Source: Candidatus Poribacteria bacterium (GTDB lineage Bacteria > Poribacteria > WGA-4E > JAJDTR01). Taken from it: DNA of 64,000 bases. Made by a program: the position numbers and the translations under genes. Of the stretch, positions 20,495-63,929 are shown piece by piece. The first letter of the stretch is position 1; the number at the start of each line of letters is the position of its first letter. The notes below the pieces were generated by a model that was given only the letters and a program-made list of their open reading frames with translations, was not told the origin of the DNA and did no database searches. Location: positions 5,024,001-5,088,000 of the forward strand of contig CBDCTK010000002.1 of the NCBI GenBank assembly GCA_965222225.1, written 5' to 3'.

Positions 20495-20830
20495 TCATGT
20501 TTCTACCTTCGCGTATACAGGCGAGTTGATATCAACTAGAATATTATCTCCTTCTACTTTCACGGGATAAGTTGCGATGCATGTTTGCCCAGGCCAAACG
20601 CATTTCCCGGTTTTTACATCAAACTCCCACATGTGGAGTGGGCAGGTAATTACACTATCACTCAGGAACCCATAACTTAAAACTCCTCCGAAATGCGGGC
20701 AAATGTTGTTCATCGCATGATATTCACCGGAGACGTTGTAGATGCCGACAAAAACACCCTCAACCTTGACACCAATGCAGCGGCCCGCCTGAATTTCATC
20801 AGTTTTCGCTGCTATCACAAATTGACCCAT
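20495..20830 (-). CDS. Rieske-type ferredoxin
   Basis: CPHFGG...CPLHMWEFD, 111 aa. Confidence 0.9.
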   Translation of the reverse strand: MGQFVIAAKTDEIQAGRCIGVKVEGVFVGIYNVSGEYHAMNNICPHFGGVLSYGFLSDSVITCPLHMWEFDVKTGKCVWPGQTCIATYPVKVEGDNILVDINSPVYAKVET

Positions 20831-21146
20831 TCCACGGTTTCCTTTCCGTTAGTGCCTATGTCTTACCCTTGATGATTGTATCACGTCTTTCTCGCATACC
20901 TCAACCAAATTCCAGATTTTTTCCGTATGATTCTAGTCGTCGCGTGTACAAAAATGTTCAACACATTCACTATCCATGCGTACACTGCGAGAATGTTGTA
21001 TAAGTCACCCAAGGCAATTACCGGGCCGTTGTGCATGCACCTGTCCTGCACTAGAGGAGCCTACCATTTAAGTGAGTTTCGAGGAGTGAAGCTGTTATTA
21101 TAGTCATTGCAACTAAGATTATACATTTGGGACTTACGCAATTCAG

Positions 21147-21234
21147 TTTGTAGTAGCGATCAAGGGAGCGAATAGCGACTGCGATAGAGATCCCTTTACT
21201 GCGCGTCTTCTGTAGGAGCGAGCTTTGCTCGTGA
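21147..21234 (+). repeat. GTAG-type REP composite carrying one 36-bp GATC element (21158-21193)
   Basis: TTTGTAGTAGC-[GATCAAGGGAGCGAATAGCGACTGCGATAGAGATCC]-...TGTAGGAGCGAGCTTTGCTCG; inverted homolog at 47865-47981. Confidence 0.8.
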
Positions 21235-21660
21235 GAGGAAATCTCGATCTGGAGATTGGATCTCTATTGTACTTGTTGCCCCCTCGATTAATCTCCTACA
21301 GTAGGTTTGTCGCAACAATCTCCAATTGTCAAATCGAGCAATATATAATTCATATCTGTGTAAATATGAATGTAAATAACTGTAGCAGGGAGTCGCCGGC
21401 TGACTGCAAAAGAGCGAGTGGTGTGCCGATTAGGATGAGGTCACAGAACATTATTGAAGCATGACCGTGAAATAGGGGCGTTGGGCCTGAAACTTCTCCT
21501 CGCTGCGTGTTCATTGGAGGTAGTATTGGCACGCAACCGGATATTCAGCGGGTTCGAGATTATCGATTGGGGTATTGAAAATTAAGGACAAATCTTCAGA
21601 AAGATGTGGAGATTGACCTGCGAAAGTACGCAAAGGGAAAGGATTTGCATCCCGAATGGT

Positions 21661-22908
21661 TTAAACAGATTCCTGAAGTTTCGGATGATTGCCTAGTACC
21701 TTGATTAAAGTACGCGCAAGTTTTTCGGGGTCATGACGAATCACATTCAGTTGCACCCCATTCTCAACAACGACTGTATCGCGAATGAGATCCGCTTCGA
21801 CAACATGGCCTTCCTCGAAATTATCATGCTCTAGATCGTATAGGACCTGCACCTTGGAAGTGTCAGCCATCTGTTCCCGAGTTTCATCGGATAGTTGAGA
21901 AATATAATTCGTCAAACTCATGACCAAATCTGTTGGACGTACCTTATTATCTTCGAGCAGTGAGAGCCCTTCTTCGGCACGTGATTGAATCCTTGTCAGG
22001 AGTTCTGATAGTTCTTTCTGGACGTACCTTTTTATTAGGTCGTCGGGCGCCGGTTGATTGTTAACTACAATATAGTCTAGTGGAACATCCGCGTGATCGT
22101 AGATTGCCTGGACGTGGTCAGTCACGGAATACCCGTCCGTCTCTCCAGGTTGAGTCATGACGTTGCAGATGTAGATTTTCATTGCATTTGATCCCTGAAT
22201 TGCATCTACAATGCCTTTGACAACAAGGTTCGGCATAATACTGGTGTATAAGCTCCCGGGGCCGATGATTATCACATCGGCATTTACGATGGTTTCGATA
22301 GCCTCCTGATGGGCGACACATTGATAGGAATCTGTTGACGAGTGTTGATGGGTCTTGCCATTATCGCGCGGTGCGAGGAATACTCGTCGAATCGGTTCAC
22401 GGTTCCGACGGTTTGGAATCTGTGATTCCCCGCTAACCACTTCGCCGTCCGCCAGTTCCGCGCATAGCATTGTATAATCTAGGCTCACGGGAATGATTCT
22501 TCCACGTACGGCGAGGAGTTCTGAGGCCGCCTGAATCGCTTTCGGAAAACTGCCTTCACTCAGTTCGGTTAATGCAATCAAGAGCAGATTTCCGACTGTA
22601 TGTCCGCCCAAGTCGCCGTTGCTGGAAAAACGGTACTCAAATAACCGTGCGAGCAATTCGTCCGCGTCAGAAAGCGCATATAGTAACTTGCGGGTATCTC
22701 CTGGCGGAAGTACATCAAATTCTTCAATCAGTCTTCCGGTACTACCGCCGTCATCAAAGACAGAAACAATAGCGGCTAATTTGTTCATGTCAATAATCTC
22801 TGACCAATCGTGTTTTGCGCTTGTATATTTCTTAATGCCGCTTAGCAAAGACGACAAACCAGTTCCGCCGCCGATACAAGCGAGTTTCAAGGCACTTTTT
22901 TCCGTCAT
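21661..22908 (-). CDS. yvcK: YvcK/UPF0052 family (UDP-GlcNAc-binding, CofD-like) protein
   Basis: IGGGTGLS, DDGGSTG, PPGD, GPGSLYTS, NVMTQPGET, RHDPEKLA; adjacent to glmM. Confidence 0.9.
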   Translation of the reverse strand: MTEKSALKLACIGGGTGLSSLLSGIKKYTSAKHDWSEIIDMNKLAAIVSVFDDGGSTGRLIEEFDVLPPGDTRKLLYALSDADELLARLFEYRFSSNGDLGGHTVGNLLLIALTELSEGSFPKAIQAASELLAVRGRIIPVSLDYTMLCAELADGEVVSGESQIPNRRNREPIRRVFLAPRDNGKTHQHSSTDSYQCVAHQEAIETIVNADVIIIGPGSLYTSIMPNLVVKGIVDAIQGSNAMKIYICNVMTQPGETDGYSVTDHVQAIYDHADVPLDYIVVNNQPAPDDLIKRYVQKELSELLTRIQSRAEEGLSLLEDNKVRPTDLVMSLTNYISQLSDETREQMADTSKVQVLYDLEHDNFEEGHVVEADLIRDTVVVENGVQLNVIRHDPEKLARTLIKVLGNHPKLQESV

Positions 22909-23078
22909 GAATTTCTCCGCAAATTATCAATGCCAAAAGGAACTTAGCGCAAACTCGAAGTCCTGTGATGATGACTTCAGTTGTCGCGATAAATCTGGAA
23001 GAGGATTTAATTTACACGAGTCACTTGTAGATTTCAAACGCATCTAAATAGTGGCAATCTTTGAGGTTATGTTCTTGT

Positions 23079-24515
23079 TCAGCTTTCGTATGTCATTAGT
23101 TGCTTTAAGGTTTCAACTGTTTCATTACAGAGTATTTCAGCTCGGTCAGAAGTTCGAGCCTCACTGAACACCCGAATTACCGGCTCAGTGCCTGACTTTC
23201 GAATGTTGACCCAGCTATCTCTCCAGACGCGCTTCACACCGTCTGTTAAGTCGAGTGACACTTCCTCCGCCAATTTCCCTTTTTCCGCGTAAATCTCCGC
23301 GGCACGTTGCACTACTGCTTCAGAAACCGACTGCGAAGGGCTCTCCAGCTTTTTCTGAAACATTGCATAACTCGGTATTGAGTTAACCAACGCTGAAATT
23401 GTCGTGTTAGATTCAGCGAGTTGATGAACGATGGCGGCGATAGATGCGAGACCGTCTGTTGTATATTGAATTTCAGGGAAAACCACTCCTCCAGTGCCCT
23501 CGCCACCGATAACTGCGTTAGTTTTTCGCATTTTTTCAACAACATAGCCTACGCCAACCGGCGTACGGTGCACTTGAGCGCGATGTCGAGCAGCAATATC
23601 GTCAATCATGAGACTCGTAGAGACCGTGCTAACCACATCGCCCTTTCTTCTGTTAAGGATAAAATCGGCAGAAAGTGCAATTGTGTACTCGCTACTCAGT
23701 GGGGCACCGTCTTCAGAGACAACAACAAGTCGATCCGCGTCTCCGTCATGTGCAAACCCGACATCCGCACTGTTCGCAAGGACAGCTTTGCAAAGTTGGT
23801 TTAGCGCGTCCGGGGTTGGCTCTGCCGAGCGTGGAAAATGGCCGTCCGGAACACAGTTTACTTCAACTACTTGACATCCGAGTTGCCTAAGCAAGTGTGG
23901 ACTTGCGATGCTACCTGCGCCGTTGCCACAATCGATTGCAACTCTAAGAGCGCGTTCGCGCAGCAACTCAAGGTTTACCCAGTCGCAATCTAGGATCTTT
24001 TCTATATGTCGCTTGATGGCGCCTTCATAGATTTCAACCGACCCTTGTTGATTCCACTTGGCGAGGTGAAAATCCTTGGATTGGTAGATTTCCATGAATT
24101 GTTCTCGCTCTTGCCGATTTAACAGTCGTCCTGATTCAAGCGCAAATTCCAAGCCATTCCACTCCACGGGGTTGTGGCTTGCGGTGATGGCGATGCTGCC
24201 GCTCGCATTTAATTCTTTCGTCATCAACAGAATCGTTGGCGTTGGACACATACCGACATCAATCACTCTGCAACCGGTCGAAATGAGTCCAGCTAGAATC
24301 GCATGGCGGGCCATCTCACCCGATACGCGCGAATCTCTACCAACCACCACAGTTTTGGAAGGATTCGAATTATTCTGTTCGCCATAGTGACGTTGACGCT
24401 TCGCCGTGTTCACCATAATGCCAAAAGCGGTTGCAAACTGTGTCAACATAGCCGCATTCAGAGAATTGCCGACGATACCACGGATACCTGACACACTGAC
24501 GATGGGAGTGTCCAT
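23079..24515 (-). CDS. glmM: Phosphoglucosamine mutase / phosphohexomutase
   Basis: SVSGIRG, GRDSR, TASHNP, DGDADR, GGEGTGG, RKSGTEPVIRV. Confidence 0.85.
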   Translation of the reverse strand: MDTPIVSVSGIRGIVGNSLNAAMLTQFATAFGIMVNTAKRQRHYGEQNNSNPSKTVVVGRDSRVSGEMARHAILAGLISTGCRVIDVGMCPTPTILLMTKELNASGSIAITASHNPVEWNGLEFALESGRLLNRQEREQFMEIYQSKDFHLAKWNQQGSVEIYEGAIKRHIEKILDCDWVNLELLRERALRVAIDCGNGAGSIASPHLLRQLGCQVVEVNCVPDGHFPRSAEPTPDALNQLCKAVLANSADVGFAHDGDADRLVVVSEDGAPLSSEYTIALSADFILNRRKGDVVSTVSTSLMIDDIAARHRAQVHRTPVGVGYVVEKMRKTNAVIGGEGTGGVVFPEIQYTTDGLASIAAIVHQLAESNTTISALVNSIPSYAMFQKKLESPSQSVSEAVVQRAAEIYAEKGKLAEEVSLDLTDGVKRVWRDSWVNIRKSGTEPVIRVFSEARTSDRAEILCNETVETLKQLMTYES

Positions 24516-24520
24516 AAATT

Positions 24521-25390
24521 CTAAGCCTTGTCGTGGTGAAAATCCTTGATAAAACCAAGCCTCGATACCATAAAGAGACAGCAAAGCCCGACCAAAACTT
24601 GAAAACCGCACACGGCATACCATTTTGGATAAACAAACAGGTAAGACGGGAGCGGGGTCAGTTCGTACAAGTGTGGTGCTCTGAATATATCAATTTCAAG
24701 TAGCTGACACACAGCGATTAGTGGATTCATAAAAAGGAACACCGGTATAATTGAAAACTGGTCAGCAATCAATAAAGTTCCGATGTAGCGATTCAGCGGT
24801 GAAAGAAGAAAAACTCCACCAATCAACAACAGTGATGCGGCATATGCAAACTGGACAGCATGAATCTCATGGCAAAAAATCCGCCAGCCCAACATTCCGA
24901 TAAATGCACTCGAAAAAACAGTAGCAAGAAGCACCAAGTGATAGGAAAATAGCGTTGCATACGACACATCGTGGCTCGATTCATTGACAAGCACAAAGGC
25001 CGACGCCGACAAGACAGCAAAACAGACAAGTGGGACTTGGCTGCTAATCGCAATGGCACCAAGAGTGCTCCCGGGGCGTATCCGGCTTAGTACCAGAAGT
25101 TTATCTGATGTAGCTTCACGGAATTGATTGGCGAGTGCGCGACTTGAAAAGCAAGGAGATACAATCAGGACCAAGAAGATCTCTGATAGGAATTTTGTGC
25201 CCAAACTGTGGGTAAGCCTAAGATGCGATAGGAGCTGATTAACCGCCAACAGAAGAAGACCGAGTATAGTAATCGTGATAAGGATTCGCCTCATTGTCCA
25301 TTGACCCATCAGTAGGCTCAATCTGTCCGCATAGTAACGCCTATCCTCTAACATACTGAAGCGTATCAATCCATTCATCTCAAGAATCAC
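24521..25390 (-). CDS. Multi-pass membrane protein (ABC-2 permease-like); start uncertain
   Basis: About six hydrophobic segments; FLFMNPL; co-oriented with glmM. Confidence 0.6.
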   Translation of the reverse strand: MILEMNGLIRFSMLEDRRYYADRLSLLMGQWTMRRILITITILGLLLLAVNQLLSHLRLTHSLGTKFLSEIFLVLIVSPCFSSRALANQFREATSDKLLVLSRIRPGSTLGAIAISSQVPLVCFAVLSASAFVLVNESSHDVSYATLFSYHLVLLATVFSSAFIGMLGWRIFCHEIHAVQFAYAASLLLIGGVFLLSPLNRYIGTLLIADQFSIIPVFLFMNPLIAVCQLLEIDIFRAPHLYELTPLPSYLFVYPKWYAVCGFQVLVGLCCLFMVSRLGFIKDFHHDKA

Positions 25391-25413
25391 ATGTGAACCA
25401 AGACGACTTGAAT

Positions 25414-26079
25414 CTATTCTTCTCCGAAATGCTGCTGCAACATACTTTGAATCTCTAGGATAATACGCTCAATTGCGTAGAGGTTCGGATTAATTTCCAA
25501 AGCTCGCTGAAAAGCGTCCATTGCTGCCGCAAGGTCGCCAAGTTTCAAGTAGCACTGTCCCATTCCCGCGAGCGCGCCAAAATGAAAGGGATTGAGTTCA
25601 ACTGTCTTCTTGCAATCTTCGATCGATTTACTCAACTCGTCGCTCATGAAATATGCGATTGCGCGTTGATTGTATCCCTCTGCAAAGTTAGCGGCTATCC
25701 GTATGACCTCTGAGAACACTTGAATCGCCTCTCCGTATTGTTGCTTTTTTATGTGATTTGTGCCTTTTTGCATCATGGCGCTAACCGATTCATCGTCAGA
25801 CCGAAACCAGATCGACCACAATGCCTGTTCAGCATTGGCGCGCGTCCCCGGATCTTCATGCGTGAGCGCTGCAACCAAAGATGGGATGGCGTCTTCGTTA
25901 GCAATCTCACCCAGCGCATACGCCGCAGCCCGGCATGTGAGCGGTTTCCGGTTTTCTAAGGATTCTATGAGCGTTTCCTGTGAATATTTCTCCTCCAAGG
26001 CACGCTTTAGCGCATGCTTCTGATTCGGATGCTGATGCATTAACCTAGCTAGTTCGGAGAATCCATTTTGCTCTGGCAT
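25414..26079 (-). CDS. HEAT-repeat + TPR protein
   Basis: AAAYALGEI, AEQALWSIW, FAEGYNQRA, LNPFHFGALAGMG. Confidence 0.85.
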   Translation of the reverse strand: MPEQNGFSELARLMHQHPNQKHALKRALEEKYSQETLIESLENRKPLTCRAAAYALGEIANEDAIPSLVAALTHEDPGTRANAEQALWSIWFRSDDESVSAMMQKGTNHIKKQQYGEAIQVFSEVIRIAANFAEGYNQRAIAYFMSDELSKSIEDCKKTVELNPFHFGALAGMGQCYLKLGDLAAAMDAFQRALEINPNLYAIERIILEIQSMLQQHFGEE

Positions 26080-26605
26080 ATATAATTCCTTGAATTTTCA
26101 GGTCAACTACGCATGACTAGTGTTGACCTAACACTTATAATTTATCAATCCGAAATCACGATTGAATCATATCACACCTTGACAATCTGCTCAAGAGAAA
26201 AGTATGAGACGTGTTTGAGAACTCTAGACACAACTTGAAAAACGGCACTTGGGAATCTTGGGAACTTTCATACTTTTCATACCAAATGAGGGATTCCAGT
26301 AGAGACAGAAAACCGTAAGAACTCTTGCTATCACTGGATTCTAGGTAGTTTCAACATTCGAACTTCCAAGGGTTGGTATGAAACAGCGGGAGCTACCCAA
26401 AACATTTTCAAATCTCGGATTGACGTTCTGTCGTAGAAGAAGATTGTTTTTCAAAAATTTCTTAACCCGACTTTGTACATTTAAGCGGGATAACAGACGG
26501 TGTCAATCAAGCGTTGAAGAAAAGCGGGGAAGATTTTAACCATTTGGTCTTTTTGGTTGACCATTGAAAAAGTCGTCAGCGGTTTCTGATATTGTGCAAC
26601 CTGTC

Positions 26606-26893
26606 GGGATCTCTATCGCACTCACTATAGGATTTACTATCGCCTTCGTTATCCACTCAGTTGATCGTTCGTTTGATCTCGCGCTGGGGGGCTGATGTAA
26701 ATAACTCGCTGGCGCTATACACCTGAAGATCTCTATCGCACGGGATTGTCTATCACCCTCCCTATCCGGTCGGTTGATCGTCGCTGGCGCTTTCAAAGGC
26801 TGGTAGGATCTCTATGGGATTTCTATCGCACTCGTTATCCACTCGTTTGATCGCTCATTATTCATTCGCTTGATCGCAGTGCGCACCCTACAA
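26606..26893 (-). repeat. Mosaic of REP-like hairpins and nested 36-38-bp GATC elements
   Basis: Full copies at 26630-26666, 26742-26779 and 26816-26852, each with adjacent partial copies; ends in the REP half GCAGTGCGCACCCTACAA. Confidence 0.8.
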
Positions 26894-27272
26894 GATGGCA
26901 ATTCAGAATTGTACTTTTGTACAAAGTCGAGCCTAAGTCAGGCATTTGCACTTCAAGTCTCTGACGTGGGTAGCGGAGATTGGGAAGGATGCAGTCAAAT
27001 TACCACAGTGAATAGTGCACACAAGCATAGGAGACGTTGGGTGCGCAATGCCGGCAGCGCGTTCGGGGATGATGGACCTTTGCCACCCTGAAAGAACTAG
27101 ATGTACTTGCAGAACGCCCAAGTGTCAGATATAATGCTTGCAGTCGGGTGGATTAAGGAGTCATGTGAAGAACCACACCTGCTAGGATAACCACAGAATC
27201 TGTAATGTAGGAGTCCGAGGCCTATCGGGTGGATTGTGTGTTACGATCGAAGGACTACAGCAACTGTTAAAA

Positions 27273-27427
27273 AACCCAAGTTGCCACCTTTGTCCGACAG
27301 GGGCACAGAAACCGAGTTTTTTCCGACGTGGAAACACGAGATTGACGATAATCAGACCAATTTACCTATAATTTAGCGAACGTGAACCAAAAAATCGGGT
27401 TCTCTTTTATAGGTAGCAACTTGGGTT
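27273..27427. repeat. Long-spaced inverted repeat element (MITE/REP-like)
   Basis: AACCCAAGTTGCCACC ... GGTAGCAACTTGGGTT (15/16 inverted match), with inner AAACCGAGTTTTTT / AAAAAATCGGGTT inverted pair. Confidence 0.6.
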
Positions 27428-27437
27428 AAAAATAAGC

Positions 27438-28478
27438 ATGTATATATTTGAACCGTTGAATTGTCAGTGTGAGGACTCGTGGGATGAGGTTCTAAAACAG
27501 TGTCCGGGTAGCAATGCATTTCACTCAACCGCATGGAGAGTCGCCCTTGACCAAGCGTTTGCTCAACTGTCGCCAATGTACTACCTAATTAAAGAGAATT
27601 GTACGTTGGTTGGCGGGTTTCCTGCATTCGTTTTCAAGCCAATTCCCGGTATCAAGATGTTACATTCGATGCCGTGGCATCTATTCGGAGGTATCCAACT
27701 CGTCACTGATGCAGAGGTGGATATCAAGGCGTTACTTGAATTGACGGAAAAACACCTTTCAAATGCGGCACACAATCAGAATATTTGCGAGGCTATTTTT
27801 ACCCTTTCTCCTGCCCAAACCGCGGAATATGGTCATAGGTTTACCGAAATCGGTTATCAGAAACATAAGACGCTTTCCACCCATCTTCTCAGAACGTCAG
27901 AGGACTATGACGTGCTATGGAAAGCGTATAACAAGCGTGTTCGAGGTGCGGTGCGGAAGGCAGCAAAAGCAGGTGTGAGGGTTTCCGACGCGCATACCGA
28001 CGGTGATTTGGAAGCGTTCTATAGTATCTATCTAGCAACGGTCAAACGCTTGGGTGGCACGCCCAAGCCGCGAGCCCTGATTCAATCTCTTTACCGAAGT
28101 CGAATCGGAAAACTGGCAATCGCAAAGCGTGATGGGATTGTAATTGCCGGATTGTTGTATCTTTATTTCAATCGAACTGTAACGCTATGGTGTGAAGCGT
28201 CCGACCCGCAATATTTAGAATATCGTCCGAACAATGCCATCTTCCACCACATCATTCAGTGGGCTTGCGCAAGGGGATATGAGTGGGTAGATTTTGGTGC
28301 CTCTCCGCCCGAACATCACGGCTTAATTGCTCACAAAGAGCAGTATAAGGCACAGAGGTTTAACTTCTGCAGTTACATAAAGATTCATTCGCCATTGAGA
28401 CGGGAAGTTTGGCAGATAGCAGAACCTTCGCTTCGTAAATTATACACGTGGATTCAACACGCTCGCAGCCGAGATTAG
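27438..28478 (+). CDS. FemAB-like GNAT-fold protein
   Basis: FHSTAW, RGAVRKAAKAGV, YRPNNAIF, WVDFGAS. Confidence 0.85.
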   Translation: MYIFEPLNCQCEDSWDEVLKQCPGSNAFHSTAWRVALDQAFAQLSPMYYLIKENCTLVGGFPAFVFKPIPGIKMLHSMPWHLFGGIQLVTDAEVDIKALLELTEKHLSNAAHNQNICEAIFTLSPAQTAEYGHRFTEIGYQKHKTLSTHLLRTSEDYDVLWKAYNKRVRGAVRKAAKAGVRVSDAHTDGDLEAFYSIYLATVKRLGGTPKPRALIQSLYRSRIGKLAIAKRDGIVIAGLLYLYFNRTVTLWCEASDPQYLEYRPNNAIFHHIIQWACARGYEWVDFGASPPEHHGLIAHKEQYKAQRFNFCSYIKIHSPLRREVWQIAEPSLRKLYTWIQHARSRD

Positions 28479-28576
28479 CTTGGACAAGCATGAGATTTAC
28501 CAACTTTTATTCGACAATCAATTCCCGGGTTGTACAATAGAGGGCGCTCAAAATTCCCACAGCGCGAATTTGTCTA

Positions 28577-29488
28577 TCATCCTGCGGGCACAAGTACCGT
28601 AAGTCCGCGTTCGACGAGTTCTACCGTAGCAGGGGTATAGCCCACTTTCTCGCCATCCGCGTAAAGAAGGGTTGGTGGATCTGTGTGAATAGTCAGCGAT
28701 TTTGTGCGTTGGATACTGACTGCGGGATGGGCTGTATGTCCGCCCCAAAACAACTTTACAAGCATACTCAATACTGTTAGGCGAGACACGGGCTTGATGA
28801 TGCAAACATCAAATAGGCCGTCGTTCATAACAGCGTTCGGCACGATTTTGAAACCGCCGCCATAATGAGGGGTAATACCGGTTGCCGCCAAGAGAATATC
28901 CCCCTCATACACGCCGAAATCACCTTCAAGCCGCACTGCAGGGGTGTTGTAAGAAAAAAGTGTTGTAATTGCCGTATATACGTAGGTTGCCGTGCCGGAG
29001 AAGGGGACATTCGCCTCCGAAGCCCGTCGACTAACTTCGGCATCGTACCCACACGTGACTATCGTGTCAAAATAAAAATCTCCAATTCTGCCAACGTCAA
29101 CTTCAAAAGGTTTGCCGCTCAATAGTACCTGGATAGCCTGATCCGGGTCTTTCGGAATCTTGAGCGCCCTAGCGAAGTCGTTTCCCCTTCCACAAGGTAT
29201 TAGTCCCAATACTATATGTGGTCTTGCTGCGATCGCGTTAACAATTTCGTGGATTGTGCCATCCCCGCCACATGCAATCAGCCACCGACATCCATTCTGA
29301 ATGGCTTCTTGTGCCAGACGACGTGCGTCGCCTCGCCGGGTTGTCAGTGCGAGTCTACCCCTTCGTCCGTTGCTTGTGAGTCGCTTAAGAGCTCTCTCGG
29401 CAATTACCTTGCTCTTGCCTTTTCCGGAGATTGGGTTCGCAATTATTAGAAAATCTTCGGAGATTGATGTTTCAATCCGGTTTTGCAT
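28577..29488 (-). CDS. Diacylglycerol/lipid kinase family (YegS/BmrU)
   Basis: NPISGKG, GGDGTIHE, PCGRGNDFA, YGGGF, ADGE. Confidence 0.92.
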   Translation of the reverse strand: MQNRIETSISEDFLIIANPISGKGKSKVIAERALKRLTSNGRRGRLALTTRRGDARRLAQEAIQNGCRWLIACGGDGTIHEIVNAIAARPHIVLGLIPCGRGNDFARALKIPKDPDQAIQVLLSGKPFEVDVGRIGDFYFDTIVTCGYDAEVSRRASEANVPFSGTATYVYTAITTLFSYNTPAVRLEGDFGVYEGDILLAATGITPHYGGGFKIVPNAVMNDGLFDVCIIKPVSRLTVLSMLVKLFWGGHTAHPAVSIQRTKSLTIHTDPPTLLYADGEKVGYTPATVELVERGLTVLVPAG

Positions 29489-29685
29489 GATAACTTTGAC
29501 GTGGTTGGTGATTGAGGATTGATGGTTGGTAAATGGTGGGCTGTAACTGTCGAGAAAAGATAATAGCAGACTTACTCAAATGCGTCAATCCGAAATAATA
29601 TGTCAACACTTGAATCTTGACAGTGAAGTGTCAGACACGTATAATTCGCAGAGGTTTACAGCGAGAGTCCTCAAGGAGGATTGAT

Positions 29686-30687
29686 ATGTATAGCGCTTCA
29701 TTAAACGCAGTTGTCCTAACTTTAGCTACGTTCGTGTTACTTACTGTGCATGCATATTCGGAGGAGGAGTTTATGAAGGAATTCAAATCAATGCAGGTTG
29801 GCATGGTAGCACCAGACTTCACGCTAATGGATGACGATGGTGTTGAACGCAACCTGTCCGATTATCTCGGTAGCAAGAACGTCATATTGGCGTTTTATCC
29901 CAAGGATTTTACCGGTGGCTGAACAACGGAGTTGCGCTCGCTCCGGGATGAGTTGAGCCGCATTGAAGCTACTGACACCGTGGTGTTTGGCATTAGCGTT
30001 GATGGCGTACAATCGCATAAAAAATTCCAAAAGGCTGAGAAGTTTGGTTTTTCGCTGCTTGCAGACACTGAATTTGCGGTCAGCAAAATTTATAGTGGGA
30101 TAATGGAACGATTCAACGCCTCTAATCGCGTTACGTTCATTATCGACAAAGCCGGATATATCAGAGTCATCGATGAGAACGTAGACGTTGCGAATCATGG
30201 CGTAAATGTCGTCAAGTTCATTGAGGAAAATGTGTCTAGCGAACTGGAGATCGGGCACCCTTCACCAGACTTTATCGCCGCCGACCAAGATGGCGCAATA
30301 CATCAACTCAGTCAGTTCAAAGGGAAACAGAGCGTGGTGTTAGCGTTTTATCCGAAGGATTTTACCGGCGGCTGAACGGCAGAGGTTTGCTCGCTCCGGG
30401 ATGAGTCGAGCGTTTTTACTGTGCATGATGCCCAGATTTTCGGTATCAGTGTCCAGGATGCCGAGTCGCACAAGAAATTCGTGCAAGAGCATAGCCTGAA
30501 TTTCCCACTACTTGTGGACACGGGGCGTAACCTGAGCTTGCTTTTCGGCGCTGCCGATAGTCCAAGCGACCTGAGCAAGCGCATTACGATTGTTGTTGAC
30601 AAAGCAGGAAAGATTTCCAAGATTGACACCAATGTCAATGCGAGAACGCACGGAAAGGATCTGGGTGATTTCTTCGGGGGAATGTAG
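29686..30687 (+). CDS. Secreted tandem two-domain peroxiredoxin (BCP/AhpC-TSA), probable selenoprotein with two Sec codons
   Basis: Track ORFs 29617, 29932 and 30421 share one frame. TGA at 29920-29922 and 30373-30375 each fall at the peroxidatic Cys position (FYPKDFTGG*T). AAGGAGG RBS and signal peptide. Confidence 0.85.
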
Positions 30688-30765
30688 CACTTGCCTAAAG
30701 GTAAATGTGGGAGATAGGATTACTTGCCGTTGACTTCGCTTTGATCTCTAAAACGGAAGGTTTTG

Positions 30766-30876
30766 ATGACAGCCGCAAGCACGAGATTCCAACGGGCATC
30801 AGCCGGGACAATAGCGTTAATTATCTTTGTTATCATGTTGGTGGCACTAATGTTCGGGAGCGGTTTCGCAAATTGA
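30766..30876 (+). CDS. 36-aa hydrophobic peptide (MTAASTRFQRASAGTIALIIFVIMLVALMFGSGFAN)
   Basis: GGAAGG RBS, one TM-like stretch; the stop lies inside the start of the duplicated leader. Confidence 0.5.
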   Translation: MTAASTRFQRASAGTIALIIFVIMLVALMFGSGFAN

Positions 30877-31003: not shown

Positions 31004-31040
31004 GTTGCAGCCTATGCCCCGATGAAAAGGGGACTGAAAG
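31004..31040 (+). CRISPR. Solitary 37-bp CRISPR-type repeat, variant A
   Basis: GTTGCAGCCTATGCCCCGATGAAAAGGGGACTGAAAG: GTT start, GAAAG end, CCCC/GGGG stem; no second repeat at spacer distance. Confidence 0.75.
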
Positions 31041-34826: not shown

Positions 34827-34863
34827 GTTGCAGTCTATGCCCCGATGAAAAGGGGACTGAAAG
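34827..34863 (+). CRISPR. 37-bp CRISPR-type repeat, variant A
   Basis: GTTGCAGTCTATGCCCCGATGAAAAGGGGACTGAAAG. Confidence 0.78.
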
Positions 34864-35511: not shown

Positions 35512-35565
35512 AAAGCGGACTGAAATGCGTTGCAGTCTATGCCCCGATGAAAAGGGGACTAAAAG
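35508..35565 (+). CRISPR. Half repeat (variant B, 35508-35525) followed after 3 nt by a full repeat (variant A, 35529-35565)
   Basis: ATGAAAAGCGGACTGAAA-TGC-GTTGCAGTCTATGCCCCGATGAAAAGGGGACTAAAAG. Confidence 0.75.
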
Positions 35566-35566
35566 A

Positions 35567-35797
35567 ATGAAAGCCCCCACCCGCGAACGCATCAAAACCG
35601 GATTCAAGGTACTGGCAGTAGCCGTCGCCGTCTATGTCGTCATGGTCTGCGCCGGATACATCGCGCTGCTCAGAGCACCCATGCTCGCCGTCGCCAGCGT
35701 GTGGATTATATCCTTCATCACCGGATACATCGTTGAACATCAGAGTTGCATTCACTGGCGCGATGAAAAGGGGACTGATCGGACGGTTGGTATATGA
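35567..35797 (+). CDS. Small two-TM membrane protein between repeats
   Basis: ATG 1 nt after the repeat; two hydrophobic helices; the 3' end reads through the next repeat. Confidence 0.55.
   Translation: MKAPTRERIKTGFKVLAVAVAVYVVMVCAGYIALLRAPMLAVASVWIISFITGYIVEHQSCIHWRDEKGTDRTVGI
35745..35781 (+). CRISPR. Degenerate terminal repeat
   Basis: GTTGCATTCACTGGCGCGATGAAAAGGGGACTGATCG. Confidence 0.65.
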
Positions 35798-42166: not shown

Positions 42167-42500
42167 GAGCCTGTCTGAAAAATGGTGGCAAAGCTATTTT
42201 CGATCGTTTTAGTGCCATGTATCTGTGGGATCCCTATCGCACGGGATTTTCTATCGCGCGCGCTATTCGCTTGCTTGATCGTTATCCACTCGTTTAATCC
42301 CCGCTGGAGCTTTGATTTTGTGGTGAATCCCAGTTACTATACACCTAGCGCTCCGCTGAGGCCTAGGCGTGCAGGGGTTCGGTGCTTCTATACATCTTTG
42401 AAGATTCCATGTGCCATTTGAGGATTACCAAGGGATTTCTACTGCGCTCACTAGAAGATCCCTATCGTGGTCGCTATTCGCTTCCTTGATCTTTCGCTTG
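42167..42500 (-). repeat. MITE-like end + REP mosaic with nested GATC elements
   Basis: GAGCCTGTCTGAAAA end; full elements at 42243-42280 and 42457-42491, each flanked by the two halves of another copy. Confidence 0.75.
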
Positions 42501-42635: not shown

Positions 42636-43721
42636 ATGGCAACGGCAAATGGGAAGCCGGGCTTCATTCAGGCGGGTTGGCCTGTGATTGATTGTGACCT
42701 CCACAACCGATTACCGTCACTCGAAATGCTCTACCCGTACCTGCCAGACTACTGGGTAGATCATTGCAGGGATTCGGGCTTCTATGGGCCTGATGCAAAT
42801 GATTATCCGCTTGGCGCACCGACCTCAACGCGACCCGGAATTACGGAGCCTTCAGAAGACCGCCCCGCATCAGATTTGGCTCTCCTACGCGAACATGCCC
42901 TAGACGCCTGGGACGTAGATTGTGGCATACTTACCTGCGCATATCGCGTACAGAGCGTACACAATGAAGACCTCGCAGCAGCGCTTGCCTCTGCGGTCAA
43001 TGATTGGCAGATTGAACATTGGCTAAATCCTGAGCCGCGGCTCAAGGCTTCTCTGATTGTACCGAGCCAGAATCCGGAGCTGGCAGCGCGAGAAATCGAT
43101 CGGTTGGGCAATCACCCGGGCTTTGTGCAGGTGATGCTGCCGGTGCGCTCGCAGGCGCCCTACGGCAACAGACGTTACCATCCTATTTATGCCGCCGCTT
43201 GTAGGCATGACCTTGTGGTCGGCATCCATTACGGCGGCGCACCCGGTTTGCCTCCAACCTCCGTTGGTTGGCCCTCAACCTATCTGGAAGAATATGTGGG
43301 CATGTCACAGGTGTTTCAAGCGCAGGTGCTCAGTTTGGTGTCGGAGGGAGCTTTTGACCAGTTCCCCGATTTGCGCGTGGCGTTGATTGAGGGAGGCTTC
43401 ACATGGATGCCGTCGCTAATGTGGCGGTTTGACAAGGACTGGCGCGGCTTGCGACGGTTGACGCCGTGGGTCAAACGACTGCCATCCGAATATATCCGTG
43501 AACACATCCGCCTGACACTCCAGCCAATTGATTCGCCTCCAACCGCGGAACAGTTGCTTCAGATTATCGGGCAGCTCGATTCGGAGGACCTATTGATGTT
43601 CTCGACAGACTACCCTCATTGGCACTTTGACGCTCCTGAAGAGGCCTTTCCGTCGAAGATACCCAAGACATTGGCTCGCAAGATTCTATCTGAAAATGCG
43701 AGGGAATTTTACCGGCTTTGA
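42636..43721 (+). CDS. Amidohydrolase_2-fold protein (possible dinuclear oxygenase subunit)
   Basis: IDCDLH, AVNDWQIEHWL, GIH, IEGGF, FSTDYPHW. Confidence 0.88.
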   Translation: MATANGKPGFIQAGWPVIDCDLHNRLPSLEMLYPYLPDYWVDHCRDSGFYGPDANDYPLGAPTSTRPGITEPSEDRPASDLALLREHALDAWDVDCGILTCAYRVQSVHNEDLAAALASAVNDWQIEHWLNPEPRLKASLIVPSQNPELAAREIDRLGNHPGFVQVMLPVRSQAPYGNRRYHPIYAAACRHDLVVGIHYGGAPGLPPTSVGWPSTYLEEYVGMSQVFQAQVLSLVSEGAFDQFPDLRVALIEGGFTWMPSLMWRFDKDWRGLRRLTPWVKRLPSEYIREHIRLTLQPIDSPPTAEQLLQIIGQLDSEDLLMFSTDYPHWHFDAPEEAFPSKIPKTLARKILSENAREFYRL

Positions 43722-43832
43722 AAGCACTAAAGAGAAGTGACGCCGTTGCGGTTGTTAAGGTGAATCTGGTTAAGCATCTCAAATTAGGGTTTTTGTGGTT
43801 TGTTGATTTTTTTGCTGGGCAGGTATGTGGTT

Positions 43833-44578
43833 ATGAATCAGGAATTTGAAAAGAGTCCGAAACTTCAGAAGTGGCTGCATTGGATGGAGACGATTCGTAA
43901 CGAGATTTCGGGGCTCCTTCGCGACGAAAGCATGTTTTTGGAAATCCAGGACATTATCCGTGAGAATCCACGGATGCGCAAACCTAATGTTTTCTATGGC
44001 TATCTTCGAAGGACATACCTTTCTCATGCACTAGCAGGATTACGTCGGCAAATCAAACCGCATAAAGATAGCATATCCTTAGTGGGACTGCTTGAGGAGT
44101 TTGCAAAGAACCCCGAAGAATTGTCTTTTAGGTATTATTGCTCCATCCTGTCTGAACCTGCTGCCGGCCAAGGGAGTCTATGACCAAAGAAGATTTCAAA
44201 CAGTATGCAGACCCTAATGAACAGCATGTATGTCCAAAGATGATTGAGGCCGATTTGGGGAGTTTCAAATTTGCAATAGGAGTTGCTGAGGAGTATGTTG
44301 ATAAACGTATTGCGCATTGGGATAAGAGCGAGCCAGAACTCGTACCAACTTCCAGCGAAACCAGCCAGTGCTTTTATTTGCTCGAAATGGCGTACGTTAA
44401 ATACCATCTACTGTTTTATGCGAAAAGGCTCGACACGTTGACGCCAATCTATCAACACAACTGGAAGGATATTTTCCTTGAACCGTGGATAAAAACTGGA
44501 TTTGGGAGTGCAAAAGGACGCATTCATGTAGCTGAAGATTTTGACGCTGAATTACCTGAGTTCAGTGAGGACATATAA
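43833..44578 (+). pseudogene. AbiU2/HEPN-like protein split into two overlapping ORFs
   Basis: ORFs 43833-44183 and 44180-44578; LRRQ..KDSISL in the first half and YVDKRIAH in the second. Confidence 0.5.
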
Positions 44579-44599
44579 CGACTAACAACTGCTGAGAAA

Positions 44600-45691
44600 A
44601 TGGACACTGATGCCGTACAATTGAATACAACGCCAAAACGACGAAAGTTGCCAATCATCGATTGCGATGTACATAACACCCTAGCGTCAGATAAGGTGCT
44701 GTATCCCTATTTGTCAAAGCGGTGGCTTAGACATCACGAAATGCTGGAGACGCCCGATAAAGTCGGGGGATATATTGCTCGCGGTATGCCGTACGGCGCC
44801 CGGAACGACGCATGGCCGCCCTCCGGGGAACGTCCGGGCTCCGACTTAAACTTTCTTCGGGAACAGTTGCTAGACCTCTGGGATATTGAGGTCGGAATCC
44901 TGAATTGTCTTACCGCCGTGCCCGACATGCCCAATCTGGAGTACGCCGCAGCGTTCGCACGGGCGGTGAATGACTGGCAGATTGATAAGTGGCTGGAACC
45001 CGAACCGCGCCTGAGGGCGTCGATTACTGTTGTCTGCGATGATGGTGAATTGGCGGCTGAGGAAATCAACCGACTAGGCGATAACCCCGGCTTTGTGCAG
45101 GTGTTGGTACTTGCGCGTACAATGGAGCCCTTGGGGCGCCGGAAATACTGGAAGATGTATGAGGCTGCGGGAGGTCACAATCTTCCGATTGGCATCCATT
45201 TCACCGGCGTTGGAGCGGGGCCAATCACTGCTGTCGGCAGTCCTTCACACTACATCGAAGACCATACGGGGATGACGCAGGCGTTTCAGACGCAGGTCAC
45301 GAGTTTGGTGTGCGAGGGCGTTTTCGAGCACTTCCCAACGCTCAAGATTGTTTTGATTGAAGCTGGCTTTGGTTGGTTGCCGCCACTGATGTGGCGACTT
45401 GACCGCGCCTGGAAGAAGTTGAGTGATGAAGTGCCATATTTAAGGCGGTTGCCATCGGAGTATATTCATGACCATTTCTGGATGACAACGCAGCCAGTGG
45501 AGGAACCGTCCAAACAGGAGTATTTTCAGCAGTTGATCGCTAACATCAATGCAGATGAAAAACTGATGTTTGCTACTGACTACCCGCATTGGGATTTTGA
45601 TTCACCGGAGTATGCCATTCCCAAGAACCTATCGCCGGATCTAAGATGGAAAATCATGGCGGAGAATGCTCGAAACTTCTATCGCTTTTGA
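44600..45691 (+). CDS. Amidohydrolase_2-fold protein (possible dinuclear oxygenase subunit)
   Basis: IDCDVH, HYIEDH, FATDYPHWDFD. Confidence 0.88.
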   Translation: MDTDAVQLNTTPKRRKLPIIDCDVHNTLASDKVLYPYLSKRWLRHHEMLETPDKVGGYIARGMPYGARNDAWPPSGERPGSDLNFLREQLLDLWDIEVGILNCLTAVPDMPNLEYAAAFARAVNDWQIDKWLEPEPRLRASITVVCDDGELAAEEINRLGDNPGFVQVLVLARTMEPLGRRKYWKMYEAAGGHNLPIGIHFTGVGAGPITAVGSPSHYIEDHTGMTQAFQTQVTSLVCEGVFEHFPTLKIVLIEAGFGWLPPLMWRLDRAWKKLSDEVPYLRRLPSEYIHDHFWMTTQPVEEPSKQEYFQQLIANINADEKLMFATDYPHWDFDSPEYAIPKNLSPDLRWKIMAENARNFYRF

Positions 45692-45827
45692 TGACAATTA
45701 TTTCCCATAATATCAGTACATCGCTCAACATGAATTGGCACACAGAGACCAGATTAATGAGTTACTCGGCAGAAACTTTTCTCGTTTAAGTAGGTTGATT
45801 GAAGGTTGAACCAAGGAGGACAGAAAG

Positions 45828-46916
45828 ATGGCGGCAACTGAGACACACACGAATCCATCGGCAACCCGACGGAAAATGCCCGTAATTGATTGTGACATTC
45901 ACAATGCCGTACCTTCGCACAAGGCGCTGCACCCGTATATGTCAGAGCGTTGGCGAAGGCATCTTGAAATGGTGGGGACCCCCGCTCGAAATGGCTCTTA
46001 TATCCCGCGTGGCGTGCCATACGCGGCTAGAAAGGATGCCTGGCCCCCTTCCGGCAAAGCGCCCGGTTCGGACCTGAAGTTCATGCAAGATCAGCTGCTT
46101 GACCACTGGAACATCGAATATGGGGTTCTAAACTGTTTAATCTTCCAAGATATGCGCAGCGTGGAATTCAATGCCGCGCTGTCGCGCGCAGTTAACGACT
46201 GGCAAATCGAGGAATGGATCAAGCCCGACCCAAGGCTGAGAGCGTCAATCTTGGTTCCGTTTGAAGATGGCGACCTGGCCGCGGATGAAATTGATCGGCT
46301 TGGAGCTCACCCGGGGTTTGTGCAAGTCCTACTCGTCGCTCGCACGATGGAACCCCTTGGAAGGCGCCGCTATTGGAAGATTTACGAGGCGGCGGTGCGA
46401 CATGACCTTACGATTGGGATTCACTTCGGCGGCCTCGGTGTTGGTTCAATCACCTCTGCAGGCAAACCTTCACACTACATTGAAGACCATGCGGGGATGT
46501 GCCAAGTGTTTCAGACGCAAGTGACCAGTTTAGTGTGCGAGGGGGTCTTCGAACACTTTCCTACGCTTAAGGTGGTGCTAATCGAAGGAGGATTTGCTTG
46601 GTTGCCACCACTGATGTGGCGGCTTGAGCGCTCTTGGAAAATGCTGAGGGAGGAAGTTCCGTATTTGAAACGCTCCCCGTCAGAATATATTCGTGAGCAT
46701 TTCTGGCTAAGCACGCAGCCGATGGAAGAACCACCCAAGCAGGAATATTTTCAGCAGTTGCTTGAGCATATCAACGCCGATGAAAAATTGATGTTCGCAA
46801 CAGACTATCCACACTGGGACTTTGATTCGCCGGGCCATGCGCTTCCCAAGAACCTAAACCCCAATTTGAGGCGGCGAATCATGGCTGAGAATGCTCGTGC
46901 CCTGTACCAATTCTAA
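45828..46916 (+). CDS. Amidohydrolase_2-fold protein, close paralog of 44600-45691
   Basis: IDCDIH, HYIEDH, FATDYPHWDFD; AAGGAGG RBS. Confidence 0.88.
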   Translation: MAATETHTNPSATRRKMPVIDCDIHNAVPSHKALHPYMSERWRRHLEMVGTPARNGSYIPRGVPYAARKDAWPPSGKAPGSDLKFMQDQLLDHWNIEYGVLNCLIFQDMRSVEFNAALSRAVNDWQIEEWIKPDPRLRASILVPFEDGDLAADEIDRLGAHPGFVQVLLVARTMEPLGRRRYWKIYEAAVRHDLTIGIHFGGLGVGSITSAGKPSHYIEDHAGMCQVFQTQVTSLVCEGVFEHFPTLKVVLIEGGFAWLPPLMWRLERSWKMLREEVPYLKRSPSEYIREHFWLSTQPMEEPPKQEYFQQLLEHINADEKLMFATDYPHWDFDSPGHALPKNLNPNLRRRIMAENARALYQF

Positions 46917-47800: not shown

Positions 47801-47981
47801 TGTAGGAGATCAAGCGAACGAATAGTGAGTGCGATAGAGATCTTCTCGAGGTCGCGACTTCTTATCGCGAGCAGAGCTCGCTCCTACAGGAGACGCACAA
47901 TAAAGGGATTTCTATCGTCCTCGCTGTTCGCTCGGTTAATCTATTCGCTCCATTGATCGTTCGGTTGATCGCTACTACAAA
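47801..47981. repeat. Inverted REP pair with GATC elements (47808-47843 on +; 47905-47970 on -, stuttered)
   Basis: TGTAGGA-[GATCAAGCGAACGAATAGTGAGTGCGATAGAGATC]; GCGAGCAGAGCTCGCTCCTACA; homologous to 21147-21234. Confidence 0.8.
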
Positions 47982-49559: not shown

Positions 49560-49805
49560 GAACCTGTTTGAATAATCGATAGGAAAGCCATTTTTGGTCA
49601 TTTGTGGGAAGTTCTTCCATGTCTTAATTGTTGCCTGCTACGTACCTGTCGCCCCGCTGGGGCTTAGGTGCACGGGGTTTTGGCGTTTCTATACACCTTC
49701 ATGGATCTCTATCGCAGTCGCTATTCGCTCCCTTGATCCCACTCTGGGGCTTTTAGAGGCTGGTGCGCAGTGCGCACCCTACAAATGTACTTTTCAAACA
49801 GGCTC
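49560..49805. mobile_element. MITE-like element (246 bp) carrying REP hairpins and one GATC element (49703-49738)
   Basis: TIRs GAACCTGTTTGAA / TTCAAACAGGCTC, flanked by TAA on both sides (possible 3-bp target duplication). Confidence 0.65.
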
Positions 49806-62786: not shown

Positions 62787-62823
62787 GTTGTAGTCTATGA
62801 CGCGATAAAAAACAGACTAAAAA
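62787..62823 (+). CRISPR. Degenerate 37-bp repeat, variant B
   Basis: GTTGTAGTCTATGACGCGATAAAAAACAGACTAAAAA. Confidence 0.65.
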
Positions 62824-63194: not shown

Positions 63195-63231
63195 GTTGCA
63201 GTCTATGACGCGATGAAAAGCGGACTGAAAA
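63195..63231 (+). CRISPR. 37-bp repeat, variant B
   Basis: GTTGCAGTCTATGACGCGATGAAAAGCGGACTGAAAA. Confidence 0.75.
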
Positions 63232-63858: not shown

Positions 63859-63892
63859 GTTGTAAACCTGTCGTTTCTTGTCGTTTACACTG

Positions 63893-63929
63893 GTTATAGT
63901 CTATGTCTTGATGAAAAGGGGGCGTCGGT
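63893..63929 (+). CRISPR. Degenerate repeat, variant A-like
   Basis: GTTATAGTCTATGTCTTGATGAAAAGGGGGCG; the 3' end is lost. Confidence 0.6.

Follow-up and report, generated by a model that had tools for sequence, protein, structure and literature searches.

The window considered here is a stretch of 64,000 nt from a Candidatus Poribacteria bacterium (contig CBDCTK010000002.1, positions 5,024,001 to 5,088,000). It contains nine full copies of a 36-base hairpin element, as well as a filled and an empty version of one of the sites that this element uses. The empty site is a hairpin of the repetitive extragenic palindrome (REP) family REP1 at 49757–49784, on the minus strand and without insertion. 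Its plus strand reads AGGCTGGTGCGCAGTGCGCACCCTACAA, and its minus strand, tagged with GTAG, reads TTGTAGGGTGCGCACTGCGCACCAGCCT. The REP1 hairpin at 26797–26893 has the same sequence, split after AGGCTGGT by 71 nt (26805–26875), and the GC of the empty site is gone. An initial annotation of this DNA had given the coordinates and sequences of both sites, and they are exact on re-reading.

The 71-nt insert is two copies of the element, one nested in the other. The whole arrangement lies on the minus strand. The 3' half of the host REP1 on the GTAG strand is at 26797–26804 (AGGCTGGT on the plus strand), and in the empty copy it is continuous with the 5' half, which carries the GTAG tag, at 26876–26893 (TTGTAGGGTGCGCACTGC on the minus strand). 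Between the two halves are the 3' tail of the outer copy (26805–26815, ATAGAGATCCT on the minus strand), the inner full copy (26816–26852), and the head and hairpin of the outer copy (26853–26875, GATCAAGCGAATGAATAATGAGC on the minus strand), whose stems GC/AT pair with AT/GC. This nested parse follows the class "host 23 -> 27". The inner copy, which separates the hairpin of the outer one from its tail, matches the motif without mismatch (26817–26852) and scores 65.6 bits (E 1e-11) with a covariance model built from 62 distinct copies. The insertion site in the REP1 at 26876–26893, ..CACTGCG^C ACC.., is found elsewhere in the genome with other stems.

A second nested pair is seen at 26606–26678 on the minus strand, inside a repeat of the GCCCCAGNGGGGCGACAGGTG type (REP_A). 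The outer copy occupies 26606–26629 and 26667–26678, and its loop is split by the inner copy at 26630–26666 (motif 26631–26666, 2 mismatches; 48.8 bits). The uninterrupted form of this arrangement is present elsewhere in the genome (pair e541). Next to it, the minus-strand segment 26728–26779 consists of a full copy (26742–26779; motif 26744–26779, 2 mismatches; 43.9 bits, E 3e-7) followed, on that strand, by the 3' fragment of a host copy (26728–26741).

The other full copies are at 21158–21193 (plus strand, 0 mismatches, 65.7 bits), 42456–42491 (minus, 2 mismatches, 47.2 bits), 47808–47843 (plus, 1 mismatch, 61.3 bits), 47906–47941 (minus, 2 mismatches, 48.2 bits) and 49703–49738 (minus, 0 mismatches, 61.3 bits), the last of which adjoins the empty REP1. 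A diverged full copy is at 42241–42283 (minus, 40.6 bits, E 1.5e-6). The repeat cluster around it is wholly missing at the orthologous site in four of six aligned congeners. The covariance model finds nine matches in the window at E ≤ 1.5e-6, in the same nine places as the full copies of the initial annotation, plus two weak ones (E 0.1 and 0.51). A motif search allowing up to 3 mismatches gives 8 matches against 0.01 expected from 100 shuffles. No Rfam 15 family matches the window at the gathering score.

Consensus and fold of the element

The genome, G000, is 5.70 Mb in two contigs. It contains 707 copies at up to 2 mismatches and 924 at up to 3; the genome-wide counts below refer to the latter. 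Their consensus is (g)(c/g)GATCAA-NN-GA-NN-GRATA-NN-GA-NN-GCGATAGARATCC(c/t). With the bounds set by insertions, the unit is G|ATCAA-NN-GA-NN-GRATA-NN-GA-NN-GCGATAGARATCC(Y)|, a net 36 nt, and 769 of the 924 copies differ in 36-mer sequence. Each copy has two GATC sites. As inverted repeats, the ends GATCAA and ATCC match no further than GATC, and the element has no coding capacity. Information content is high at positions -1 to 37 and falls to about 0 bits within 3 nt beyond both ends. Such flanks indicate that the unit is not a fixed piece of one larger repeat. A single fixed position of the motif within a larger REP or miniature transposable element with inverted repeats (MITE), which the initial annotation had named as the finding that would count against its proposal, is not what is observed: besides the uninformative flanks, at least five positions are used in REPs and in the element itself.

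Most copies (863) are outside crude open reading frames (ORFs) of at least 120 aa, and 61 are inside. The statement that none are in genes thus holds for the window and fails for the genome, where several copies are in frame in conserved genes. The number of copies tracks intergenic length, in divergent and convergent spacers alike. Orientation to flanking genes is random (305 co-directional, 268 anti-directional). Among neighbours within 400 nt of each other, direct orientation is seen 223 times and inverted orientation 60 times; the inverted ones have no favoured spacing. The HIP1 octamer is not enriched in the genome (120 copies), so it gives no cyanobacterial link.

The eight N positions of the consensus covary as four base pairs, 7-23, 8-22, 11-19 and 12-18. 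Watson-Crick pairs are seen in 647, 841, 860 and 771 of the 924 copies, respectively, against 279, 350, 331 and 450 expected if the positions were independent. To these are added 224 wobble G·T at pair 7-23 and 122 wobble T·G at pair 12-18. A·C or C·A is rare, with 7 to 16 cases per pair. The excess of G·T over A·C indicates that selection for folding acts on the GATCAA strand alone. The conserved positions between the pairs are G·A partners: G9·A21 in 870 copies, A10·G20 in 892 and G13·A17 in 897. The layout is therefore a single central hairpin at positions 7-23, in which two 2-bp Watson-Crick blocks surround a tandem G·A/A·G and a closing G·A stands over a three-base loop. The stems occur in 218 different combinations. 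In the set of 62 distinct copies, the paired cells amount to 97.2%. Shuffling gives 61.3%, none of the 500 shuffles reaching the observed value, and sliding of the partners drops pairing to 19–57%. The same pattern of covariation is seen in 45 copies from a second genus (g4). The outer GATC/GATC pairing shows no covariation over the 924 copies.

Beside GA, A is avoided at the 5' position and T at the 3' position. Such avoidance is the context favouring sheared tandem G·A pairs. We infer that the folded molecule is single-stranded DNA.

Insertion sites and mobility

The flanks of all 924 copies were compared against the genome, and a paralogous empty site is found for 159. Good flanks are present in 103 of these 159 filled/empty pairs, which represent 87 distinct combinations of junction and element core. 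The identical REP1 site with near-identical flanks can hold copies with different stems (e53 and e56).

The orthologous genes of congeners show insertion step by step. The gene at C2:3116353–3117945 is empty in eight congeners, reading ..TATGG|CAGCAT.. or a close variant. In G002 it is longer by 36 nt, which is one copy. In G000 it is longer by 72 nt, which is the copy of G002 with a second copy nested after its G20-A21. The series runs from 0 to 1 to 2 nested copies across ten congeners, and as aligned it is the strongest indication of mobility. Another gene has a clean addition of 36 nt relative to the closest relatives in G005 and G009. A third gene has 72 nt more than that of G005, with flanks 98–99% identical, and than those of five other congeners.

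Two observations accompany these alignments. Part of a 2419-aa ORF (G000:C2:2920572–2922007 against G005:C1:4390786–4392149) is 98–99% identical, and other genes shared by this species pair are about 83–90% identical. The high identity at this place suggests recent gene transfer or conversion. In a small conserved ORF (G000:C2:2964917–2966352, locus L144), 133 nt of coding sequence kept by four congeners are replaced by one copy of the 36-mer, and the event is an insertion coupled to a deletion.

Whole intergenic repeat clusters of several hundred bases are also present or absent between congeners, so that the element travels as a passenger of larger repeats as well. One REP composite has 24 identical 36-mers among its copies. 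With such cluster-level absence, single events are not readable at orthologous intergenic sites; at locus L148 the insertion site has no orthologue.

Contigs from public sequencing runs (four runs of four studies) aligned to positions 20500–30800 of the window all break at copies of the element. Their joints skip 36, 37 and 70 nt, and the shorter side is just 20–47 nt. Such joints are rejected as a sign of polymorphism in this region, since paralogous empty sites elsewhere may produce them.

For junction statistics, 80 distinct junctions without overlap were used. The last base shared with the empty site is G in 63 of the 80; in 13 more a GA is shared and its A comes last. Before the junction, the commonest triplets are GCG (24), GGG (12) and CGA (11), and the empty site continues with C in 54. 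The usual target context is SG^CR, with the copy directly 3' of G, and upstream information is just about 0.3–0.4 bits per position. The insert starts with ATCAA in 46 of the 80, and its length is 36 nt, the mode, in 34. Of the two junctions, the left is sharp and the right ragged, with extra pyrimidines and variable tails; the number of target bases replaced is 0 in 9 cases, 1 in 13, 2 in 28, 3 in 16, 4 in 7 and 5 in 7. A target duplication is seen neither at these junctions nor in the orthologous series, as the initial annotation had stated for target duplications and for long terminal inverted repeats. In some cases the sequence shared at the junction is longer. The pair e615 shares GATC at the left junction. 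In one intragenic event, the empty allele already holds on the left 7–8 bases identical to the element end, GGATCAAG, and in another it already holds on the right 7–8 such bases, the tail-like AGACATCC.

The targets include two REP1 sites (both TGCG^CAC), loops or arms of at least three other REPs with GTAG, the repeat GCCCCAGNGGGG^CGACAGGTG, and unique sequence. A GTAG tag is upstream on the same strand in 214 copies. The opposite-strand pattern is counted 27 times, few of which are real on inspection. This same-strand preference holds though the REP1 target word occurs on both strands. The element is a target as well. Nesting in the same orientation is seen 126 times, after host positions 12, 17-19 or 23, and nesting in the opposite orientation 20 times, of which 18 are at CTATCG^C of the host bottom strand. 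At least five positions within host copies are used.

These facts indicate that the 36-base hairpin is a real mobile element, among the smallest known. The idea of a tiny mobile insertion preferring hairpin repeats, put forward from the window, is borne out by the 159 empty paralogues, by the orthologous gene with 0, 1 and 2 copies, and by targets that comprise several REP families and the element itself.

Replication strand, host range and candidate enzymes

Orientation was compared with GC skew, taken within ±25 kb as the mean of the skews of plus-strand and minus-strand genes, which corrects for gene orientation. The folding strand is the C-rich strand in 594 of 834 copies (71%; odds ratio 0.165, p 1e-34), and the odds ratio is 0.27 when counted by cluster. 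The C-rich share is similar in all contexts: 73% for copies hosted by REPs, 70% for those that adjoin or interrupt other copies, and 71% for all others. In empty REP1 hairpins, the GTAG strand is C-rich in 77%. The gene dnaA at 2.61 Mb is beside the minimum of cumulative skew at 2.50 Mb, and 36 of 47 tRNA genes are on the G-rich strand. Both point to the G-rich strand as the leading strand. The folding strand then has lagging-strand sequence, on the leading-strand template. The bias could come from preferential loss of copies whose stable strand is on the lagging-strand template. It is also seen that the GC skew of contig C2 flips sign every few hundred kb, not once per replichore, and that the orientation of REPs and of the 36-mer flips along. 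This patchy skew suggests many inversions in a repeat-rich chromosome.

The range of the element was surveyed in 61 genomes of the order. It is in all 10 genomes of the genus that includes G000 (g1) and in all 4 genomes of g4, a genus of another family. Every carrier of these two genera has at least about 100–140 matches, and copies from g4 agree with those of g1 in consensus, in covariation and in REP targets. The element is absent from the 22 genomes of family f2 and the 7 of family f4, and it is in 2 of the 16 genomes of genus g6. Matches in G059, G043 and G010 are confined to few contigs or contig ends, and they are probably contamination of bins, not a third lineage. An exact-pattern scan of one genome per bacterial or archaeal species gives at least 117 stretches, and among the matches listed all 80 are from metagenome-assembled genomes of Candidatus Poribacteria. 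In the literature on repeats of Poribacteria, no description of the element was found; only "palindromic" in connection with CRISPR turned up.

The genome has five matches to Y1_Tnp. One of them, Y1-A (C2:3080255–3080728), is an IS200-like protein of 157 aa flanked in G000 by inverted copies of the element, which made it a candidate for the REP-associated tyrosine transposase (RAYT) of the element. It is rejected. Its constant flanks are inverted GCCCCAGNGGGGCGACAGGTG repeats in 14 of 14 genomes, seven of which have no copy of the element within 1.5 kb. These flanks indicate that Y1-A is the RAYT of that other repeat and that the 36-mer is a guest. Its distribution does not match either: homologues of 74–82% identity are in element-free genomes, and none is found at E ≤ 1e-10 in the element-rich G021 and G027. 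Y1-A, also seen at loci L036–L049, and the inverted GCCCCAGNGGGGCGACAGGTG(TATAG) repeats form a conserved RAYT–REP pair present in at least three families of the order. The nicks by a REP-associated HUH enzyme that the initial annotation had suggested thus find no support.

Other candidates were rejected as well. Y1-B has relatives of 23–31% identity in four of five genomes searched, without a pattern. Y1-C (G000:C2:3088862–3089350; L033:1862–2350) is a pseudogene of a classical RAYT with one in-frame TAG; it is surrounded by GTAGGAGCGATC..GGTCGCGA repeats (REP4). The single RVT_1 protein (670 aa) scores 27.5 bits alone and 29.9 bits with its in-frame neighbours, where the cut-off is 29.6, and it has no match in five genomes, two of them of g4. 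Topoisomerase IB, considered because the tail of the element resembles CCCTT, is found in none of the 61 genomes. Genes that adjoin g4 copies and are highly similar to genes of G000 proved ordinary. Among the genome's proteins, the multi-copy families are DDE transposases (IS1595 and IS4/IS5), an integrase that has two partners of unassigned family, and non-mobile paralogues; they include neither an HUH enzyme nor a reverse transcriptase. The search for a gene that tracks the element gave neither a reverse transcriptase nor a primase-polymerase, primase-polymerase families not having been searched.

Among these multi-copy genes, a five-copy unit (G000:C2:1313884–1316304 and four other loci) has a 312-aa tyrosine recombinase beside a 379-aa protein without Pfam match. 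A four-copy protein of 599 aa with no assigned family is near some of these units. The five-copy unit may be an undescribed mobile unit.

The window has further features. A 37-nt CRISPR-like repeat, GTTGCAG...GGGGACTGAAAG, with an internal hairpin, is present in seven copies at 31004–31040, 34827–34863, 35529–35565, 35745–35781, 62787–62823, 63195–63231 and 63885–63921. Their spacing is irregular (216 nt to 27 kb), and they are not an array; they are often just upstream of small ORFs without Pfam matches. At 42636–46916 there are three tandem paralogues of about 360 aa with 60–70% DNA identity, and the one scanned is Amidohydro_2. Two more ORFs are between the first and the second paralogue.

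Mechanism and comparison with known systems

The element is probably a non-autonomous single-strand hairpin element moved in trans. As it codes for nothing, it must be moved by an activity encoded by the host or by another element. A copy is placed directly 3' of G, typically at SG^CR, with no duplication and often with loss of a few target bases on the 3' side. The preferred targets are hairpin-forming DNA, namely several GTAG REP families, another REP, and copies of the element. Insertion is strand-specific, its orientation is tied to replication, and the mobilising activity would recognise the shape rather than the stem sequence. The element may be handled as single-stranded DNA at or near the fork; we infer such an intermediate and its link to the fork.

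Two mechanisms are considered about equally likely within this general statement. In the first, an enzyme akin to a RAYT, acting on single strands as a structure-specific nuclease and ligase, would cut both sides of one hairpin. It accounts for the defined ends and the kinship with REPs, and it does not account for the ragged right junction or the polarity. The second, target-primed copying, accounts for the G, GA or longer stretch shared on the left, the loss on the right side, the choice of hairpins as targets, the polarity, and the fact that no gene tracks the element.

Several facts weigh against this general statement. Searches of Y1, reverse transcriptase, topoisomerase IB and multi-copy families gave no enzyme that would mobilise the element. 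The ragged right junction, with 0–5 bases lost, misfits the exact chemistry of known HUH single-strand transposases. The identity of GGATCAAG and AGACATCC with the element in empty alleles argues for base-pairing between target and element rather than for pure protein recognition. Many filled sites are one event copied with its host repeat, and the raw counts overstate the number of independent events. Nearest-neighbour DNA energies are weak, on average -2.07 kcal/mol for the top strand and -1.53 for the bottom, with the top strand more stable in 695 of the 924 copies; these parameters do not model sheared G·A pairs. One check of polarity disagrees, with 45.9% of coding bases on the G-rich strand. 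The polarity of the bias is also opposite to that given for IS200/IS605, which prefers the lagging-strand template in the relevant passages of PMC6006769.

Taken as an explanation of its own, target-primed copying, or copy choice, differs from the favoured one in mechanism alone, and it is rather unlikely. A nascent 3' end halted at G in a template hairpin would pair with ...TTGATC-3' of a free bottom-strand copy, a DNA or RNA of about 37 nt. It would be extended to the end of this template and would then re-anneal a few bases downstream on the original template. A dedicated transposase would be unneeded, and a polymerase and a source of small templates would suffice. This agrees with a left junction that is exact and at which the start of the element invariably has G, GA or more in common with the target (63 G and 13 GA of 80), sometimes as much as GATC (e615) or GGATCAAG, and with a right junction that is ragged, has extra pyrimidines, and in one event ends in the native tail-like AGACATCC. 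The targets are hairpins, where forks stall, and the new strand has lagging-strand sequence in 71% of copies. The range would need just seeding by the element, and no tracking gene. On the other hand, the free 37-nt template has not been sighted and its making has no explanation, and the strand selected for folding is the product, not the template. The sole reverse transcriptase match is weak, and two genomes of the second genus lack a homologue of it. Ends as defined as those of the 924 copies are unusual for template switching.

It can be speculated further, as a doubtful variant, that spread is free of any transposase: a nascent 3' end of the lagging strand, stalled at a hairpin, would prime on a discrete single-stranded copy of about 37 nt and run off its end, and the product's G·A mini-hairpin, of unusual stability, would force re-annealing a few bases further downstream. 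If true, this would be a new mode of transposition, DNA-templated and target-primed synthesis, and it would also explain the movement of the small dispersed repeats (SDRs) of cyanobacteria.

It is very unlikely that the host keeps the copies for a function of the fold, either as a DNA hairpin that binds protein or organises the nucleoid, or as an RNA stem with the role proposed for REPs in transcript stability or termination. The covariation, in which 97% of stem cells pair though 769 of the 924 copies differ, would follow from selection acting on every copy, and this reading is compatible with mobility; the retention in two genera of different families and the two GATC sites per copy could be considered in the same way. 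The random orientation to flanking genes (305 against 268) argues against a cis RNA role. Copies are proportional to intergenic length in divergent and convergent spacers alike, they interrupt genes and each other, they match no Rfam family at the gathering score in the window, and 22 f2 and 7 f4 genomes of the same order do without them.

The least probable reading, that the element is not mobile itself and is a module of REP/MITE composites whose filled/empty pairs arise by deletion, gene conversion or recombination, fits the presence or absence of whole clusters of several hundred bases, the many REP1 sites filled with the same 36-mer (24 identical), which indicate that composites spread as units, and conserved ends that could support gene conversion, but it is already contradicted by the orthologous 0/1/2 series, as well as by flanks without information over 924 copies, in-frame additions of 36 and 72 nt within unique flanks of conserved single-copy coding sequence, different stems at the same site, and at least five nesting positions.

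How units too small for transposase sites at two ends can move has been a question since the cyanobacterial report of 2008. The element offers an unusually clean system for it, with some 900 copies per genome, covariation that proves the fold, an uncomplicated target rule, nested stepwise events in orthologous genes and a signature of the replication strand. Its sharp phyletic boundary, with two carrier genera against sister genera without the element, can be mined for the missing activity. There are practical effects too: copies break short-read assemblies and add 12 or 24 codons to proteins. Together with REPs, the element makes up much of the intergenic DNA in these sponge symbionts.

The SDRs of cyanobacteria are 21–27 nt long. 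The repeats SDR1-8 were reportedly described in Nostocaceae by Elhai et al. 2008 (Genome Res 18:1484), and some of these families are said to have a predicted hairpin with compensatory changes. Like SDRs, the element is very short, dispersed, insertion-like, found inside other repeats, and without coding capacity. Unlike SDRs, it is 36 nt long and belongs to another phylum, and the two are compared by description, not by sequence. As far as is known, the tandem G·A core, the G^C target rule and the bias to one replication strand also set it apart. According to passages of PMC5861425, SDR5 possibly uses the HIP1 octamer as its insertion site, and they state that HIP1-rich cyanobacteria outside Nostocaceae yielded no SDR-like repeat. 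The SDR work of Elhai et al. 2008 is also in the reference list of PMC3116915.

The element resembles REPs and REP doublets forming hairpins (REPINs), as outlined in parts of PMC3116915, PMC3733652 and PMC6006769, in being a short, high-copy, mostly extragenic hairpin (863 of 924 outside crude ORFs) with strand-specific features. The REPs of this genome are also biased to the same replication strand. A monomeric RAYT handles substrates of such a design, one hairpin with single-stranded arms that are conserved. Unlike REPs, the element has no GTAG or CGTC at the hairpin foot; its consensus begins with GATCAA, and GTAG is in host REPs only. It has no cognate flanked RAYT, and its stems are hypervariable with covariation, whereas REPs are one conserved palindrome in which it is a guest. 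Unlike REPINs, it has no inverted doublets at fixed spacing (223 direct against 60 inverted). To our knowledge, insertion of single REP units has not been shown so far, whereas single units of the element do insert.

Unlike MITEs, the element has neither terminal inverted repeats nor a target-site duplication. In the attC sites of integrons, one strand is recognised by its fold, the stem sequence is little conserved, and the orientation to replication limits folding. These sites are 57–141 nt long, have R and L boxes, are in gene cassettes, need IntI, and are not dispersed. The element is like attC in its little conserved stem and in the fold of one strand, and unlike attC it is dispersed. The GC clusters of yeast mitochondria make a short target duplication. 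As presented in part of PMC4478555, they are like the element mobile hairpin DNA of a few tens of bases, ranking with the smallest mobile DNAs and often nested or in repeats, and unlike it organellar and GC-rich; they have no relation to it in sequence or host. With IS200/IS605, as described in the relevant passages of PMC6006769, the element shares the lack of terminal inverted repeats and duplication, a dependence on one strand being folded, and a replication-linked bias in orientation. Insertion 3' of a short word may be common to both as well; in the element it is 3' of G in 63 of 80 junctions, with about 0.3–0.4 bits per position upstream and 0–5 target bases lost. The same passages give IS200/IS605 hairpins at both ends, a specific target of 4–5 nt, exact junctions and a preference for the lagging-strand template, whereas the element has one central hairpin and 71% of its folding strands are on the leading-strand template.

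The element fails the defining tests of REPs or REPINs, of MITEs, and of IS200/IS605 derivatives. New here are the strand-specific fold with tandem G·A pairs, the preference for insertion at G^C, the orthologous series of 0, 1 and 2 copies, the bias to one replication strand, the range of two genera, and the exclusion of the flanking Y1 gene. Among known systems, the nearest in behaviour are the SDRs of Nostocaceae, and the nearest in design are REPs.

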